From a virus (taxonomy: Duplodnaviria; Caudoviricetes): DNA of 64,000 nt. The translations under genes were made by a program, and so were the position numbers. Positions 2,571 to 9,564 of this stretch are shown here, piece by piece; within the stretch, counting starts at the first letter, position 1, and each line of letters starts with the position of its first letter. The DNA is taken from IMG/VR virus record IMGVR_UViG_3300037067_011000, positions 10,632 through 74,631 of that record; one strand, given 5' to 3'. Under the pieces are notes generated by a model that was not told the DNA's origin, did no database searches, and saw only the letters and a program-made list of their open reading frames with translations.

Positions 2571-3212
2571 ATAGATATGGAAAATGAAGGGTTTTTTATT
2601 ATGTCAAAAGAGATGAGGATTGAATTAGAAAATTCTAAAAATAATTACATTACTTCATTAAATAAAAAATACAGTTCAATGGGGTATACAAAAATTAAAT
2701 CATCACATTTTGAAAAAGTTTGGAAGATGTGTCCTTTTGAACTTTCTAAATATGATAACAAAGAAAAAGCTCAAAAAGCATGGGATATATTGTGTGTTGA
2801 AAATATTACACCAACATTAGAAGTAATAGAGGCTCTTTTAAATGAAGTTAAATATCTTATTCAAACCAAAATAGAACTTGCAGAATTGCATTTTAGTGCA
2901 ATTATTGATAATACATCTCTTATTGAGCACATAACAACAAGATATTTAATATGTAAATTAAACAATAAAAATGCTTTTCTTACTTATAAAGAACAGTTAC
3001 AACATCCTTTGTGGCAAAAGAAAAGATTAGAAATAATGCAAAGGGATAATTTTAGTTGTAGACAATGTGGGGATAACCAAAATGTTTTAAATGTGCACCA
3101 TAAAAAATATATTTCAGGAAATAAACCTTGGGAATATCCTGATGAGGATTTAATAACTCTTTGTGAAACCTGCCATTCTAATCTTGAACTTAATAAAAAA
3201 AAGAATGGCTAA
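2535..3212 (+). CDS. HNH endonuclease domain protein
   Basis: C-terminal LQHPLWQKKRLEIMQRDNFSCRQC...VHH...LCETCH; true start may be the ATG at 2577 or 2601. Confidence 0.75.
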   Translation: MDFLLTCEGFYFIDMENEGFFIMSKEMRIELENSKNNYITSLNKKYSSMGYTKIKSSHFEKVWKMCPFELSKYDNKEKAQKAWDILCVENITPTLEVIEALLNEVKYLIQTKIELAELHFSAIIDNTSLIEHITTRYLICKLNNKNAFLTYKEQLQHPLWQKKRLEIMQRDNFSCRQCGDNQNVLNVHHKKYISGNKPWEYPDEDLITLCETCHSNLELNKKKNG

Positions 3213-4002: not shown

Positions 4003-5292
4003 ATGGCTATAAAATACTCAGAAGATCATGGACACCCAAATACTTTTGTTGAAAGAAAAATAACACTTGGTTTATTAACCTCCACAGAGTTTTGTGATAA
4101 AGTTGCAAAAATTTGGGATATTGGTTTGATTGAATCCTCCACAGATAAAATGATTTTGTCTTGGGGTTGGGAATATTATTTGAAATTTAAAAAAGCTCCA
4201 GGAAATACTATTGCAGATATTTATTACTCCAAACTTAAAGAAACAAAAATTAACCCTGATATTGCAAATGAGATTGAAGAAGTTCTTCTTCCAAATTTAT
4301 ATACTGATTTTAAACAGGATAATTATAATTTAGAATATCTTGTTGAAGAAACAGAAAAATACTTCAATGACAGAGGACTTCAAATTTTCCACGAAAGCGT
4401 GGAAGCCTTGAGAAAAGCAAATAAACATGAAGAAGCAGAAAAACTTATCAGGGAATACAAACCCCCAAGTAAAATAGGGAAACTTGCAAAATATATTTCA
4501 ACTGTAGCAAAACTTAAAAAAGATGAAACACCCACACCAACAACAATTATGCACCCTTGGCTTAAAGAAGGACAGATAACAATCATCTATGCAAACTATG
4601 GTGTGGGGAAGTCCCTGCTTTCAATTCTCGTGGGATATATGTGTGGGTTGAAAGAGTTTGATACCAGTGACTGTGAAATAGGAGAATGGTTTGTTAAAAC
4701 ACCAACAGGGTGTTTATATGTTGATGGGGAACTTGGAGAAAAAGAAATGGTAGAACGTATAAAGCAGTATGAGTGGCTTGGTATTCAGCATAGGGATCAC
4801 AAAATGCAAATACTTTCAATCCCTGATTATCAAATCAAAACAGAAGATGTGTTTTATCTTGGTAATAGGAAAAATCAACTTGAAATTGTGTCTTGGTTAA
4901 AAGATCACCCAACTTACAAACTCATAATTCTTGACAGTGTGAGTACCTTGTTTGGATTAGCAAATGAAAATGATAACAGTGAGTGGGGATATAAAGTAAA
5001 CCCATTCTTGAGGGATCTTAGGGCACTAAACGTGGCTTGTTTGCTTTTACACCATTCAGGGAAAAGTTCAAAGACAGGGTTGAGGGGTGCTTCTGCAATG
5101 GGGGCAATGGCACAGAACATATTTAAACTTGATTCCCATAAGAAATGTGATGTGGACAATGGTGAGGCTTGGTTCGTTTTGAAGAAAGATAAACAGAGAA
5201 GTGGAGGTAAACAATTTAAAACTTTTTCTATTCACTTCTTCCAAAATGAGGAAAAAACAAAAACTAATTGGAAAATAACTGAAAACTACTAA
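4003..5292 (+). CDS. replicative helicase (RecA-fold, AAA_25/DnaB-like)
   Basis: Walker A ANYGVGKS, YVDGE, Walker B IILDS, HHSGK motif. Confidence 0.8.
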   Translation: MAIKYSEDHGHPNTFVERKITLGLLTSTEFCDKVAKIWDIGLIESSTDKMILSWGWEYYLKFKKAPGNTIADIYYSKLKETKINPDIANEIEEVLLPNLYTDFKQDNYNLEYLVEETEKYFNDRGLQIFHESVEALRKANKHEEAEKLIREYKPPSKIGKLAKYISTVAKLKKDETPTPTTIMHPWLKEGQITIIYANYGVGKSLLSILVGYMCGLKEFDTSDCEIGEWFVKTPTGCLYVDGELGEKEMVERIKQYEWLGIQHRDHKMQILSIPDYQIKTEDVFYLGNRKNQLEIVSWLKDHPTYKLIILDSVSTLFGLANENDNSEWGYKVNPFLRDLRALNVACLLLHHSGKSSKTGLRGASAMGAMAQNIFKLDSHKKCDVDNGEAWFVLKKDKQRSGGKQFKTFSIHFFQNEEKTKTNWKITENY

Positions 5293-5359: not shown

Positions 5360-6649
5360 ATGAAAATTACAAAAGATGATTTATTCGTAGCAGCAAGGGA
5401 AATGATAGATGTCATGGAGTTAGTAAACAACCAGACTGACAAAATTCCTATTCAACTTGAAGACACAAAGACAGAAGATGAACTGAAATCTTTCATCCTC
5501 ACAGCAGCAAAGGACAGGTATGATTCTGATAAGTTCACCGAACTCACAGAGGATATTATCAAGGAACTTGCAGACAATCCTGCACCAACAGGGGATACTC
5601 TTGCAGATGACATTGCACAGGCTGATACCCTGAAAGAACTCAGGAACATTGCCAAGGCAGAAGATGCTTTCAAGTCCATAAGGGGAAACCTGATGTCCTA
5701 CAAAGAAGTTGAATTTCTCAAAAATGACATGTTGGAGATTTTAAGTGATACTCCCAACACTGACAAGATTGTGGAGGAAAAAATCGTTGTAAATGCCCTT
5801 CCCGAAGCACAAGGGGCATCCAAAACCAAAAGTGACACTCTCATATCAAAAATGATGAAAGTGTCAGAAATCATCACAAAAGAGCCTTTTAGTGGGTTAT
5901 TTAAAATTGACCCACTTACAAGAGAAAAAATCAAATCTGACATGGAAGAAAATGGATTTGACAGGGCTTTTCCAGTAATTCTTTGGGGAAATGTGTTGAT
6001 AGATGGCAATACAAGACTTCTCGTTGCACGAGAACTTGAAATTGAAGAAGTGCCTGTTGAAGTGAAAGAGTTCTTTGATCAGCAAGAGGCTTTGGAGTAT
6101 GCTATTCATGCACAGAGGGACAGGAGAAATATTACTGATAGTGAGATACTATCTTGTATTGAGGTATTGGATGAGAAGATGTCAAGGAAAGAAGCAGGAG
6201 CAAAAGGTGGGAACAAAGAAAAGAAAGAGGAACCAAGTCATGTGAAAACTGCAAAGACTTTGAAAGTTACCAAGACAAAAGTGAGTGATGCAAGGGCAGT
6301 ACTGACTGATGCAGTGGCTACGGAAGAAGTGAAGTCGGGCAAGAAGACAATTTCAAAAGCTGCAAAAGAGGTAAGGGAAAAGAAAAAACCTGTAAAAGAG
6401 GTTAAGGAAATAAAGAAAACAAGGTTGGAAGCTGTGGCAGAGGTGGCAAAAGGTTTTATGAGTGCAAGTACTACAATGCAGGAATTGATTGAGGAATCTG
6501 ATATTCTCTTTGAAGATTGGGGAGGAAAAACTGATATGAAAGAAATGGAAAAGGTTGTTATGAACACTCTTGATGTGCTCAAAGCCTTTGGTCTTGTTGT
6601 ATTTTTAGGGGAAGATGAAATTTCGGTAAAAGGAGTTTTAATAATATAA
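5360..6649 (+). CDS. ParB N-terminal domain protein with extra N- and C-terminal domains
   Basis: FSGLF...IKSDMEENGFD..FPVILW...LIDGNTRL..ARELEIEEVPV...RRN ParB-like core. Confidence 0.75.
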   Translation: MKITKDDLFVAAREMIDVMELVNNQTDKIPIQLEDTKTEDELKSFILTAAKDRYDSDKFTELTEDIIKELADNPAPTGDTLADDIAQADTLKELRNIAKAEDAFKSIRGNLMSYKEVEFLKNDMLEILSDTPNTDKIVEEKIVVNALPEAQGASKTKSDTLISKMMKVSEIITKEPFSGLFKIDPLTREKIKSDMEENGFDRAFPVILWGNVLIDGNTRLLVARELEIEEVPVEVKEFFDQQEALEYAIHAQRDRRNITDSEILSCIEVLDEKMSRKEAGAKGGNKEKKEEPSHVKTAKTLKVTKTKVSDARAVLTDAVATEEVKSGKKTISKAAKEVREKKKPVKEVKEIKKTRLEAVAEVAKGFMSASTTMQELIEESDILFEDWGGKTDMKEMEKVVMNTLDVLKAFGLVVFLGEDEISVKGVLII

Positions 6650-6989: not shown

Positions 6990-7288
6990 GGATTGCTATG
7001 AATTTTGAGGATACTCAAAATTTATACGGGAACGGGTACGGGAACGGGTACGGGAACGGGGACGGGTACGGGTACGGGAACGGGTATGGGAACGGGTATG
7101 GGAACGGGTACGGGAACGGGGATGGGGACGGGTACGGGGACGGGTACGGGGACGGGTATGGGAACGGGAATGGGAACGGGAACGGGAACGGGAACGGGTA
7201 CAGGAACGGGAACGGGTACGGGAACGGGTACGGGAACGGGTACGGGTACGGGAACGGGTACGGGAACGGGTACGGGTACGGGTATTAA
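6977..7288 (+). CDS. Gly-rich (GNGY/GDGY)n repeat protein
   Basis: 103-aa ORF overlapping the DUF6948-like gene end; 43 X-Gly dipeptides (one is Tyr-Arg). Confidence 0.6.
   Translation: MASVRIAMNFEDTQNLYGNGYGNGYGNGDGYGYGNGYGNGYGNGYGNGDGDGYGDGYGDGYGNGNGNGNGNGNGYRNGNGYGNGYGNGYGYGNGYGNGYGYGY
7025..7282 (+). repeat. hexanucleotide microsatellite, about 43 x NAYGGG
   Basis: Continuous tacggg/aacggg/gacggg/tatggg units over 258 bp. Confidence 0.95.
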
Positions 7289-7316
7289 AATTTTTAAAAA
7301 ATAATTACAAAAGTTC

Positions 7317-7345
7317 TTTGATATTAAAATAATTGTTTATCTTTG
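7317..7345 (+). promoter_or_regulatory. Bacteroidota-type promoter (TTTG-N17-TATCTTTG)
   Basis: Exact TAnnTTTG -7 box at 7338-7345; TTTG at 7317-7320; intergenic. Confidence 0.7.
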
Positions 7346-7348
7346 TGG

Positions 7349-7479
7349 CTGGATTATATGCTCAGTATGGCTACAAAAACACAATTTATTGATATACCAT
7401 TATGGTTAGGGAGTAAGGTACTTTCCCACCTAACAGTGAGCAGTAATCCAGACTTACTCCCCCCATAATGTGTTTTTTT
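7349..7479 (+). promoter_or_regulatory. attenuator-like leader 2 (crossing helices A/A' and B/B' plus U-tract)
   Basis: CTGGATTATATGCTCA 7349-7364 pairs with TGAGCAGTAATCCAG 7437-7451; CATTATGG(TTA)GGGAGTAAG 7398-7417 pairs with CTTACTCCCCCCATAATG 7453-7470; then TGTTTTTTT. Confidence 0.65.
7367..7468 (+). CDS. putative leader peptide 2 (33 aa)
   Basis: MATKTQFIDIPLWLGSKVLSHLTVSSNPDLLPP*; starts 2 nt after arm A and stops inside arm B'. Confidence 0.45.
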   Translation: MATKTQFIDIPLWLGSKVLSHLTVSSNPDLLPP

Positions 7480-7760
7480 ACGTTGGTAAGTCAAAGCCAA
7501 ATATCAAAAGACACTCCCGAACAAAGGATGCTTCTAAGCTAAAAAACTTAATTTTAACGAAAACTAACGATGATGGGCACACTGCAAGACAGAAAATTCT
7601 GTAAAATCCCTCACTTTTTTGGGGGTAGGGGGCACTTGCAGGAGCCCTGAATTGAAGATTTGAGTTCTGAAATTTGCGTTAGCAACTGAAAATAAGATTC
7701 TGCGTTAGCAGATGTTTTACTGGTTCAAATTTATGGGTACTGTACCTAAAAGTGTAGAAA

Positions 7761-7907
7761 ATGGAACAAATATTATACATGATTCAAGAAATAGAAAATA
7801 TGGAGGATTTTATTAAAATATCTTCCATAGATTTTAAAATAGATAAACAAGTAACTAATGAATTGTTGAGATTATTACAAAATATAAAAGAAATTGGTTT
7901 AAAATGA
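7761..7907 (+). CDS. small hypothetical protein (48 aa)
   Basis: Manually translated; ATGA overlap with the methylase start. Confidence 0.5.
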   Translation: MEQILYMIQEIENMEDFIKISSIDFKIDKQVTNELLRLLQNIKEIGLK

Positions 7908-8542
7908 GAGTACTAAACCTTTATAGTGGCTTAGGGGGGAATAGAAAACTTTGGGAAAGTGTTGAAGTAACTGCTATTGAAAACAATCCTGAAATAGCTA
8001 AATTCTACCAAGAACACTTTCCCAAAGATATAATGATAATTACAGATGCTCATGATTATCTACTAAATCATTATTTTGAATATGACTTTATTTGGAGTTC
8101 TATAAATTGTCCTTCACATAGTCGTGCCAGGTTTTGGGGGAGTAAACCAAATGGAAAAATAAAACCGGTATTTCCAGATATGAAACTTTATGAGGAAATT
8201 ATATTTTTAGAACACTATTTTGAAGGTTTGTGGGTAGTGGAAAATGTTGTACCATATTACACACCTTTAATTGTACCTTCTGTAAAACTTGGGAGACATT
8301 TATTCTGGTCTAATTACACTATCCAACAACAAAAATTTGAGGATGCAGATATAAATAGAGGGAATAAAGAAGAATGGCAGAATTTACATGGTTTTGATAT
8401 AACAGGATATAAATTTACTTCCAGAAGGGATAAGATACTTCGTAATTGTGTAAATCCTCAACTTGGGTTGCATATTTTAAATTGTGCTTTAGGTAAACAA
8501 ACAGAAATTTTAAATCGTCCAGAAACATTTTTTAATTTATAA
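7904..8542 (+). CDS. DNA cytosine-5 methyltransferase (short phage type)
   Basis: Motif I LNLYSGLGG; motif IV WSSINC (normally SPPC); motif VI VENV. Confidence 0.8.
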   Translation: MRVLNLYSGLGGNRKLWESVEVTAIENNPEIAKFYQEHFPKDIMIITDAHDYLLNHYFEYDFIWSSINCPSHSRARFWGSKPNGKIKPVFPDMKLYEEIIFLEHYFEGLWVVENVVPYYTPLIVPSVKLGRHLFWSNYTIQQQKFEDADINRGNKEEWQNLHGFDITGYKFTSRRDKILRNCVNPQLGLHILNCALGKQTEILNRPETFFNL

Positions 8543-8544
8543 CT

Positions 8545-9564
8545 ATGAAAATTAACAAAACAGACTTACAAAATGCTTTGGAGAGGGTTAAGCCAGGGTT
8601 GAGTAGTAAAGAAACTATTCAACAAAGTACCTCCTTCTGTTTTTTAGAAGGAAATGTAGTAACGTATAATGACGAAATATCAATCGCTTCGCCTGTGGAA
8701 AATCTGAATATTACAGGTGCAGTACAAGCCACTGAACTCTATCAACTGCTCAAAAAGCTAAAGCAAGAGGAAATTTCTCTTGAAGTCAGCGAAAATGAGA
8801 TACTGATAACTTCAGGAAAGACAAAAGCAGGTCTTATACTTCAAACGGAGATAAAGTTACCACTTTCCGAAGTGGAAAGGAAATCCGAGTGGAAAATCCT
8901 TCCAGAAGGATTTAAAGAGGCCTTACGCTTCGTTGTAAGTTCCTGTTCAAAGGATATGTCCAAACCTGTCCTTACCTGTGTCCACATTAATGCTGTGGGG
9001 TTTATAGAGGGTTGTGACAATTACAGGGTGGCACGTTGGATGTTAGAAGGGGAATTTCCGACAGGAACATTTTTGATACCTCAAAGTAGTGTCTTGGAAC
9101 TTCTGAAACTTGAACCTGTTAAGGTAGCACTTGATGGTGGGTGGGTACACTTTATAACAGAGGACAAAACCATGATGAGTTGCAGGGTGATTGACGATAA
9201 ATTTCCAGACACAAGTAAACTACTGAACCAAAGTGGAAATGAAGTAAGTTTGCCTGATGGAATTACAGAAGTGCTCGATAGAGCAGGGATTTTTGCGAAA
9301 AGGGACAGTCAGTTAGACGAGGATATTTCGATTATATTGGACAAGGGAAAAGTCAGGGTTGAAAGCAAAAGCGAAACAGGGTGGTTCAAGGAGGAGGTCC
9401 CCAATGAAATTTATAAAGGTGAGGAGGTTCAGTTTGATATTACTCCAAGTTTGCTGAAAGACATTCTGAAAGAAACTAATGTTTTCAGTCATTGTGGTAG
9501 GATGTTGAAGTTTGAAAGTGGAAATTGGAAATATGTTGTTAGTTTAAGAGGTGGAAAACAATGA
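8545..9564 (+). CDS. dnaN: DNA sliding clamp (beta-clamp-like)
   Basis: 339 aa; INKTDLQNALERV start; SKDMSKPVLTCVHI...GCDNYRVA; CRVIDDKFPD motifs typical of DnaN. Confidence 0.75.
   Translation: MKINKTDLQNALERVKPGLSSKETIQQSTSFCFLEGNVVTYNDEISIASPVENLNITGAVQATELYQLLKKLKQEEISLEVSENEILITSGKTKAGLILQTEIKLPLSEVERKSEWKILPEGFKEALRFVVSSCSKDMSKPVLTCVHINAVGFIEGCDNYRVARWMLEGEFPTGTFLIPQSSVLELLKLEPVKVALDGGWVHFITEDKTMMSCRVIDDKFPDTSKLLNQSGNEVSLPDGITEVLDRAGIFAKRDSQLDEDISIILDKGKVRVESKSETGWFKEEVPNEIYKGEEVQFDITPSLLKDILKETNVFSHCGRMLKFESGNWKYVVSLRGGKQ

Follow-up and report, generated by a model that had tools for sequence, protein, structure and literature searches.

The RNA predicted to head a phage replication operon opens with an element in which two long helices cross. 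This layout is kept under unrelated sequences in related phages and, judging from sequence comparison, probably represents a new type of on/off leader. Among variants of the element, helix A/A′ covaries and helix B/B′ is conserved together with its U tract; on this comparative evidence, the RNA structure is real. The preferred reading, held with somewhat less than even confidence, is that of a transcription attenuator or co-transcriptional read-through switch, which would head a ∼415-nt structured leader (7349-7765) of the replication operon.

Genomic setting and promoter

The window, i.e. the whole stretch of 64,000 nt that was analysed, covers bases 10632-74631 of an IMG/VR phage record (complete, 74.6 kb) and carries plus-strand genes throughout its positions 1-30444. 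The neighbourhood of the element is composed as follows.

4003-5292, plus strand: AAA_25 helicase-like gene
5360-6649, plus strand: ParB-like gene
Up to 7288, plus strand: 107-aa ORF and Gly/Asn/Tyr-repeat ORF, the latter ending at 7288
7317-7345, plus strand: predicted promoter P1, with TTTG (−33 box) at 7317-7320, a 17-nt spacer and TATCTTTG (−7 box) at 7338-7345
7761-7907, plus strand: 48-aa ORF, downstream of the leader
7904-8542, plus strand: gene for a 212-aa protein with a C5-methylase N-terminus
8545-9564, plus strand: sliding clamp gene

The clamp gene is followed by a UDG-family gene and then by an intein-bearing N6/N4 methylase. A 615-nt gap comes after the end of the repeat ORF (7288), and the leader element, located at the start of this gap, heads a methylase/clamp/UDG/polymerase operon, between the helicase/ParB-like and the clamp/polymerase genes. 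Comparisons rely on ∼160 clamp loci fetched from IMG/VR and JGI metagenomes, the clamp protein having hundreds of relatives. Three of these loci are essential to the argument: L085 (clamp 79% identical), the close relative L084, and L066 (clamp 46% identical).

The consensus for the Bacteroidetes sigma factor sigma-ABfr consists of TTTG near −33 and TAnnTTTG at −7 (PMC7366714). P1 (TTTG-N17-TATCTTTG) fits this consensus, and this sequence match predicts a transcript start at ∼7348-7352. The motif by itself is not enriched, with 9 matches in the window versus 5.9 expected; it is the location of P1 and its conservation among relatives that support it, not the motif count. Twenty-six nucleotides of the promoter are identical in L066, and P1 is conserved in L085, L084 and a contig of metagenome run X3. 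The promoter of L084 is the same as that of L085; it is the sole one visible ahead of the clamp gene and leads straight to it. Upstream, no terminator was seen after 7288, so that transcripts of the upstream genes may read into the leader. Downstream, a motif scan of the plus strand detected nothing else resembling a promoter from 7317 to 9483. The operon could also be driven independently from a weak promoter-like site near 7726-7733. A Shine-Dalgarno-like 4-mer is found upstream of only 15 of 80 genes, and from this rarity and the promoter type alone we infer a Bacteroidota or Bacteroidota-like host.

Just upstream of P1, positions 7025-7284 are occupied by 21.5 copies of the G-rich 12-nt tandem repeat TACGGGAACGGG. 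The array has no stop in any of the three frames, and its product is a Gly-Asn-Gly-Tyr repeat protein. Because the repeat is matched by many unrelated metagenome contigs, the depth at 7025-7284 is inflated.

Two crossing helices

The element extends from the predicted transcript start to a U tract and contains the following parts, all on the plus strand.

7349-7356 (A1) and 7359-7364 (A2): 5′ arm of helix A, at the extreme 5′ end of the predicted RNA
7367-7468: leader frame, with ATG 2 nt past arm A, 33 codons and stop codon TAA at 7466-7468
7398-7405 (B2) and 7409-7417 (B1): 5′ arm of helix B
7409-7415 with 7419-7425: local hairpin H, a competitor of B1
7437-7442 and 7444-7451: A′, 3′ arm of helix A, inside the B/B′ loop
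7453-7461 and 7463-7470: B′, 3′ arm of helix B, 1 nt past A′
7473-7479: U7 tract, which together with B/B′ makes an intrinsic-terminator-like signal

Since the arms follow each other in the order A, B, A′ and B′, the helices cross (wiring 1:3 and 2:4). Helix B/B′ comprises 17 bp (−23 kcal/mol) closing a 35-nt loop and is followed by U7; a terminator scan made no call for this combination. The last 8 nt of B′ (CCATAATG) contain the stop codon of the leader frame and have an alternative pairing with the start-codon region 7363-7370. The first-pass annotation of this DNA had described the promoter, arm A, the ATG 2 nt further on, the 33 codons, both helices and U7, and each of them was found where it had been placed.

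Whether such crossing helices are frequent by chance was a question raised in that annotation, and shuffled sequences indicate that they are rare. A crossing pair of at least 8 bp was found in 1 of 1000 dinucleotide shuffles, and four exact stems of at least 8 bp in none of 1000. A stricter search, for a crossing pair with an A′-B′ gap of at most 10 nt within 150 nt past the −7 box, returned 5 of 2000 shuffles. The z-score of the nested minimum free energy of the element (−0.73) is unremarkable, as a nested fold is unable to hold both helices.

Covariation and divergence among variants

The element itself occurs in only one of the ∼160 clamp loci, namely L085. A third variant is provided by a Logan contig from a landfill metagenome (run X3, record 2, 7309-7492, 23 differences); it was rebuilt from a difference table without one substitution and two gaps, and is slightly incomplete. 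The window, L085 and the X3 contig constitute the covariation set. Across these three variants, Watson–Crick pairing in helix A/A′ is kept at 13 of 14 positions, the terminal pair alone being lost. Double-sided changes with pairing kept are seen at 7352/7448, 7354/7446, 7355/7445, 7360/7441 and 7361/7440, the last of which appears as C–G, G–C and A–U, and a shift in register accommodates a 1-nt deletion. Helix B/B′ is invariant except for one A–U to G–U change. In a MAFFT alignment, 97.7% of the cells are paired, versus 39-46% when partners are slid by 1-3 columns. Hairpin H is present in all three variants and contains G–U pairs, one of which changes to G–C. The G–U pairs in H, and those in B1 of the X3 variant, point to an RNA of the plus strand.

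Divergence between the window and L085 is distributed unevenly over the region:

Arms of helix A: 31-40%
Arms of helix B: 5-6%
Loop L1: 24%
Loop L2: 37%
Downstream leader, 7480-7765: 7%
Third codon positions of the flanking genes: 29% and 44%

A/A′ drifts at a near-neutral rate under a pairing constraint, as is characteristic of structural RNA helices. In B/B′ and the downstream leader, judging from their divergence, it is the sequence itself that is constrained. The idea that A/A′ is a ‘hypervariable specificity helix’ was rejected, the A arms diverging no faster than the loops or nearby third codon positions. The U tract varies in length, with U7 in the window, U5 in both L085 and L084, and UUCUU in L066. 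Two copies of the octamer CAUUAUGG are present in L085 and in the X3 variant, one around the start codon and one as B2; each is complementary to CCAUAAUG, which contains the stop codon.

These data bear on the extremely unlikely explanation that the inverted repeats act in DNA, as a replication origin, a single-strand initiation signal or operators. Such a role would suit a location between helicase/ParB-like and clamp/polymerase genes, the primary-sequence conservation of the next 290 nt with their direct repeats and palindromes, and the G-rich 12-nt array just upstream. However, the arms are ∼90 nt apart and cross, unlike those of cruciforms, the G–U pairs fit an RNA made from one strand, and the promoter makes arm A the 5′ end in three different cassettes.

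The same layout in unrelated sequences

Two further loci, picked up through the similarity of their promoters and not through their frames, carry cassettes of the same layout. In L084, the promoter of L085 is followed by a different sequence. In L066, the 26 promoter nucleotides and a 23-nt block (AGTCAAAGCCAAATATCAAAAGA) are shared with the window, and the ∼150 nt between promoter and block are unrelated to it.

L084 cassette: A 87-101, ATG 101, B 132-146, A′ 173-187, B′ 189-202, then U5; L1 30 nt, L2 26 nt, A′-B′ linker 1 nt
L066 cassette: A 2735-2746, ATG 2758, B 2786-2803, A′ 2827-2838, B′ 2839-2855, with a 34-codon frame; L1 39 nt, L2 23 nt, A′-B′ linker 0 nt
Window element: L1 33 nt, L2 19 nt, A′-B′ linker 1 nt

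Duplex energies in the three cassettes range from −17 to −19 kcal/mol for A and from −20 to −23 kcal/mol for B. In the strict crossing test, all three are rare in shuffles (5, 3 and 1 of 2000). Neither nhmmer nor a covariance model gave a cross-match among the cassettes; taken with the matching geometry, this means that the architecture is conserved and not the sequence. The core idea of the first-pass annotation, an architecture recurring with unrelated sequence, is thereby borne out by L084 and L066.

That annotation had started from another comparison, with a first leader at 2387-2570 said to lack any common primary sequence with the present element and to match it in spacing. The former statement holds, in that the covariance model of the present element does not match 2387-2570. 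The latter is true in a loose sense only: leader 1 has shorter stems (9 and 7 bp) and an A′-B′ gap of 24 nt instead of 1 nt, with an extra nested hairpin and U6 in between, and it fails the strict crossing test. Its nested fold is strong (z = −3.3). The L066 genome has no comparable element at the position of leader 1. A conserved class of Bacteroidota phage attenuators, as had been proposed, is not supported by the distribution of the layout, which was found at the P1-type locus only among ∼160 related loci; the intergenic gaps of other relatives contain AT-rich chance stems only. Nothing in the data speaks for the proposed trans factor common to both leaders.

Searches for relatives gave the same restricted picture. 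Run on 32 sources, covariance model R1, built from the window, L085 and the X3 variant, retrieved nothing but the sequences used to train it; leader 1, L066 and L084 were not among the matches. When the element, 7470-7770 and the L066 and L084 cassettes were run with nhmmer against the ∼160 loci, only L085, L083 or the query itself was returned. Exact-pattern scans of IMG/VR with four conserved strings found the L066 contig only, or nothing, and such scans of contigs from GTDB species-representative genomes found nothing. A blastn search of 7000-8000 against a phage GenBank collection retrieved a methylase only. Rfam 15 had no match on the whole window at gathering thresholds, and one chance match, outside the element, on 7200-8000 at E up to 10; ARAGORN detected no tRNA or tmRNA. 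A generic scan for crossing 8-bp stems followed by a T run proved useless for finding new members (22 versus 23 on the two strands).

A short string is common to the window and L066. In the window, CCCCCATAAT(T)GTGTT makes up the 3′ terminus of the element at 7459-7476 (B2′ and the start of the U tract). In L066 (2720-2735), it is located directly past the −7 box, where the transcript begins; the 10 nt that match exactly give E = 0.056. Its placement could be the trace of cassette insertion at different points, or of a permutation.

The leader reading frame

The leader frame covers B, A′ and most of B′, and its predicted peptide is MATKTQFIDIPLWLGSKVLSHLTVSSNPDLLPP. It is open in all three variants, the other two frames having 2-4 stops. 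An ATG within 15 nt of A and a frame open to B′ are found in four of four instances (leader 1 included), versus 3-4% of shuffles for each. The context of the leader ATG is not A-rich, and Bacteroidetes start sites have been reported to be A-rich (PMC7366714).

The peptide itself evolves differently from the neighbouring proteins. Substitutions in the leader frame are spread evenly over the three codon positions (8/7/7 and 8/5/5), versus 14/9/31 and 53/42/144 in the neighbouring genes, which indicates that the leader peptide is not under protein-level selection. The conserved stretches of the peptide coincide with helix B, with no conservation beyond RNA-constrained positions, and neither MATKTQFIDIPLWLGSKVLSHLTVSSNPDLLPP nor the variant peptides contain regulatory-codon runs. 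Translation of the frame may thus matter and the peptide itself may not, as far as substitution patterns can tell.

The same counts weigh against the element being a small-protein gene, either a ‘moron’ or a type I toxin-like mRNA, in which the 33-aa product would be the function and the folds would keep the gene silent. Such a gene could explain a unit made of promoter, short ORF and terminator, ORF lengths of 33, 34 and 34 codons, and the 5′-3′ long-distance pairing that buries the start codon as in hok and aapA mRNAs (PMC6733600). Yet beyond the even substitution spread, the four instances encode unrelated peptides without any clear membrane helix, and the frame is absent from a collection of 5.8 billion proteins, where it is uncalled; this explanation is very improbable. 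A protein search with the 41-aa, TTG-extended version of the frame gave no candidate.

In L084, a 96-codon frame (101-391) opens where arm A ends and takes in B, A′, B′ and U5. Neither its 96-aa product nor the small neighbouring ORFs have a PHROG or Pfam match. The frame is without homologues at the locus and could be a genuine gene or an extended leader frame.

The stop codon of the leader frame in the window overlaps an ATG (TAATG, 7466-7470), and a frame of 44 codons starts with the GTG at 7470 (window 7466-7604); its residues SKPNIKR fall in the block conserved with L066. The L066 counterpart (2878-3027, 49 aa) has a Phe/Leu-rich, membrane-helix-like end. The 44-codon frame is shifted in L085 and therefore is probably not a conserved protein.

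The downstream leader and a minus-strand promoter-like site

Non-coding conservation continues for ∼290 nt beyond U7, a fact missed in the first-pass annotation. The features of this part of the leader are listed here.

7480-7765, plus strand: conserved non-coding continuation of the leader, 286 nt, 7% divergence from L085
7489-7511: 23-nt block common to L066
7498-7525, minus strand: candidate convergent antisense promoter, with TTTG at 7525-7522, a 16-nt spacer and GATATTTG at 7505-7498
7575-7588 with 7635-7647: helix
7674-7685 and 7699-7712: two GTTA-loop hairpins with identical loops
7736-7746: palindrome GGTACTGTACC

Over 7480-7765, conservation is higher than in the flanking genes, and its limit coincides exactly with the next start codon. 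L083:17-85 matches 7693-7761 with 100% identity despite a different following gene (C5 methylase), and a contig of run X7 passes from 7763 into an N6/N4-methylase-like start that resembles the one of L066. In variants, the pair 7578/7644 changes from C–G to U–A, which is compensatory only if both changes are on one X3 contig; the difference table suggests that they are. Also in variants, CCCUC becomes CCUCC opposite a G run. These changes hint at RNA structure downstream too.

The slot between leader and clamp gene (window 7761-8542, L083:86-1360, L066:3040-3996) is a hotspot, filled in related phages by a C5-like fragment, a full C5 enzyme or an N6/N4 enzyme, and empty in L084.

On the minus strand, both promoter-like boxes are conserved in L085 and L066, and the spacer sequence varies; in X3 and X4 contigs, compensating indels keep the spacer length. 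This type of motif is common by chance, with ∼40 matches in the genome. The site may be an antisense promoter or an operator, as it is an inverted copy of the TTTGATATT of P1.

With an antisense promoter, P1 and the minus-strand site (7525-7498) would form a convergent sense/antisense module, in which an antisense RNA pairs with the nascent leader and decides termination, and the swappable cassette sets specificity (incompatibility or immunity). Seen as a specificity module, two convergent promoters would bracket unrelated cassettes that all form the same 1:3/2:4 knot, and transcription of the replication operon would be set by sense-antisense pairing or by self-pairing between terminated and read-through isoforms. 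If this were true, the element would confer a lineage-specific ‘incompatibility’ or superinfection-immunity identity, comparable with those of plasmid antisense RNAs and P4 CI RNA. Agreement comes from the conserved TTTG-N16-GATATTTG boxes with a spacer varying at constant length (L085, L066 and X3/X4), from a 23-nt block identical in L066 despite 46% clamp identity, and from the unrelated sequences of the cassettes between conserved blocks, ahead of replication genes. All of this must be set against the chance frequency of the motif, the lack of the 23-nt block in L084, a putative antisense start in L066 that leads directly into a hairpin and U4, and G–U pairs that reveal selection on the plus-strand fold only. 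Both versions are decidedly unlikely.

A proposed model for co-transcriptional switching

In the attenuator reading, the P1 transcript would begin with arm A, whose 3′ edge adjoins the start codon. About 90 nt later, A′ is predicted to emerge and to pair with A; indeed, predicted folds of the nascent RNA up to A′ show the full A:A′ helix in four of four instances. B′ would come next and pair with B, back into the loop closed by A, yielding the 17-bp helix followed by U7. Whether the polymerase stops at U7 would be set by competing pairings, i.e. A:A′, B:B′, the folding of B into H, and the stop-codon end of B′ with the start-codon region, and these in turn by ribosome loading on the leader frame before A′ appears. 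With just 2 nt between arm A and the AUG, helix A and a ribosome at the start would exclude each other; helix A would close the start site, so that loading would be possible only before A′ is made. A ribosome trailing the polymerase would then keep B and B′ apart, resulting in read-through. Without translation, the RNA would fold shut into the A+B knot and transcription would end at U7, giving a compact molecule with both ends closed and the start codon buried. The opposite polarity, in which a ribosome at the start frees A′ and B:B′ then forms, is also conceivable. A gating role over the operon is supported by the position of the promoter and by the arrangement in L084.

The first-pass annotation had called the element an attenuator. 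Structure, promoter, frame and recurrence agree with this term; the classical alternative-helix type does not apply, because A/A′ and B/B′ share no nucleotides. For the same reason, A and B need not exclude each other, and strand-sharing alternatives are secondary only, namely H versus B1 and the start-codon region versus B2 for CCAUAAUG. When nested folds alone are modelled, the A-state and the B-state of the window element are near iso-energetic (−27.2 versus −25.7 kcal/mol); L084 and L066 prefer the A-state, and leader 1 prefers the B-state. Points against the attenuator reading are the 35-nt loop, the weak U tract of L066 (UUCUU), the frame run-on in L084, the ATG context that is not A-rich, and a comparison limited to three variants.

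It may also be that the A+B pseudoknot is just what a stable small RNA ends up folding into. An unlikely alternative is a stand-alone small RNA gene, giving a knot-folded RNA of ∼125-130 nt from P1 to U7 that acts in trans or on its own read-through copies, the open frame being either incidental or the sign of a dual-function RNA. The element would have its own promoter, a hairpin with U7 and both ends base-paired, and the A+B fold should be very stable; an own promoter and a hairpin/U tract are criteria for high-confidence intergenic sRNAs in Bacteroides (PMC7366714). There are also precedents among leader-embedded phage RNAs, such as Gifsy-1 IsrK and P4 CI (PMC4825925). However, the phage genome offers no complementary target of at least 12 nt, only chance-level matches, and the layout in L084 lies within the 96-codon frame directly ahead of the clamp gene, with no other promoter seen. 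In addition, ATG and open frame are found in all four instances, and conservation of the leader extends past U7.

Relation to known systems and significance

Classical attenuator logic comes from Proteobacteria and Firmicutes, where transcription and translation are coupled via Shine-Dalgarno-led ribosome loading. To our knowledge, early and middle gene regulation in phages of Bacteroidota-type hosts is almost unknown. The element resembles several known systems in parts; it is a member of none and is absent from Rfam 15.

Leader-peptide attenuators of the trp, his and thr operons (Rfam ‘Bacteroid-trp’ type) likewise have a short promoter-proximal frame overlapping helices and a hairpin with a U tract before an operon, and the peptide sequence itself is unimportant there as well. 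They differ in their pairing scheme (1:2, 2:3 and 3:4), whereas the element pairs 1:3 and 2:4, with crossing helices that have no nucleotides in common. The element further lacks regulatory-codon runs, has a 35-nt terminator loop that holds the 3′ arm of the other helix, and precedes replication genes instead of biosynthetic ones.

A start site closed by a long-distance interaction of the 5′ end is shared with the maturation-gene leader of Levivirus MS2. In this 5′ UTR, the 5′ end pairs distantly and closes the translation start, so that ribosomes load on nascent RNA only, and relatives with different primary sequences retain the structure (PMC4615214). The MS2 leader, however, controls a real protein on a replicating RNA genome, whereas the element has a 33-codon frame in the transcript of a DNA phage and a terminator-like signal.

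In countertranscript attenuators of plasmids (pT181, pIP501/pAMbeta1, and prgQ/Anti-Q of pCF10), leaders without a translated frame form overlapping pre-emptor and terminator helices. Their likeness to the element lies in a leader before replication genes, alternative folds and an attenuator, the convergent promoter being a candidate only in the present case. P4 CI RNA (seqA/seqB/seqC) and Gifsy-1 IsrK are comparable as short leader RNAs of phage operons with internal complementary segments; in these, replication or late functions are governed by premature termination, and the RNA exists as a terminated and a read-through isoform (PMC4825925). The element has no sequence or Rfam similarity to them, and no processing sites or trans targets were identified.

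The hok and aapA1/aapA3 mRNAs also carry an ORF of ∼30 codons in an mRNA with 5′-3′ pairing and metastable local hairpins (PMC6733600), but the leader peptide is neither hydrophobic nor conserved. Finally, H-type pseudoknot riboswitches (preQ1-II and SAM-II) have a conserved ligand-binding core, whereas the present cassettes share geometry and no sequence; with 12-17 bp, the helices of the element are far longer than those of the preQ1-II and SAM-II aptamers.

With its conserved geometry and free sequence, the element would offer a compact, testable case in which the order of folding controls genes, and possibly one of ribosome sensing without regulatory codons. Three sequence-unrelated versions behind one promoter amount to a natural swap experiment on the role of geometry. 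Were the antisense reading true, the element would also be a phage analogue of plasmid copy-control modules.
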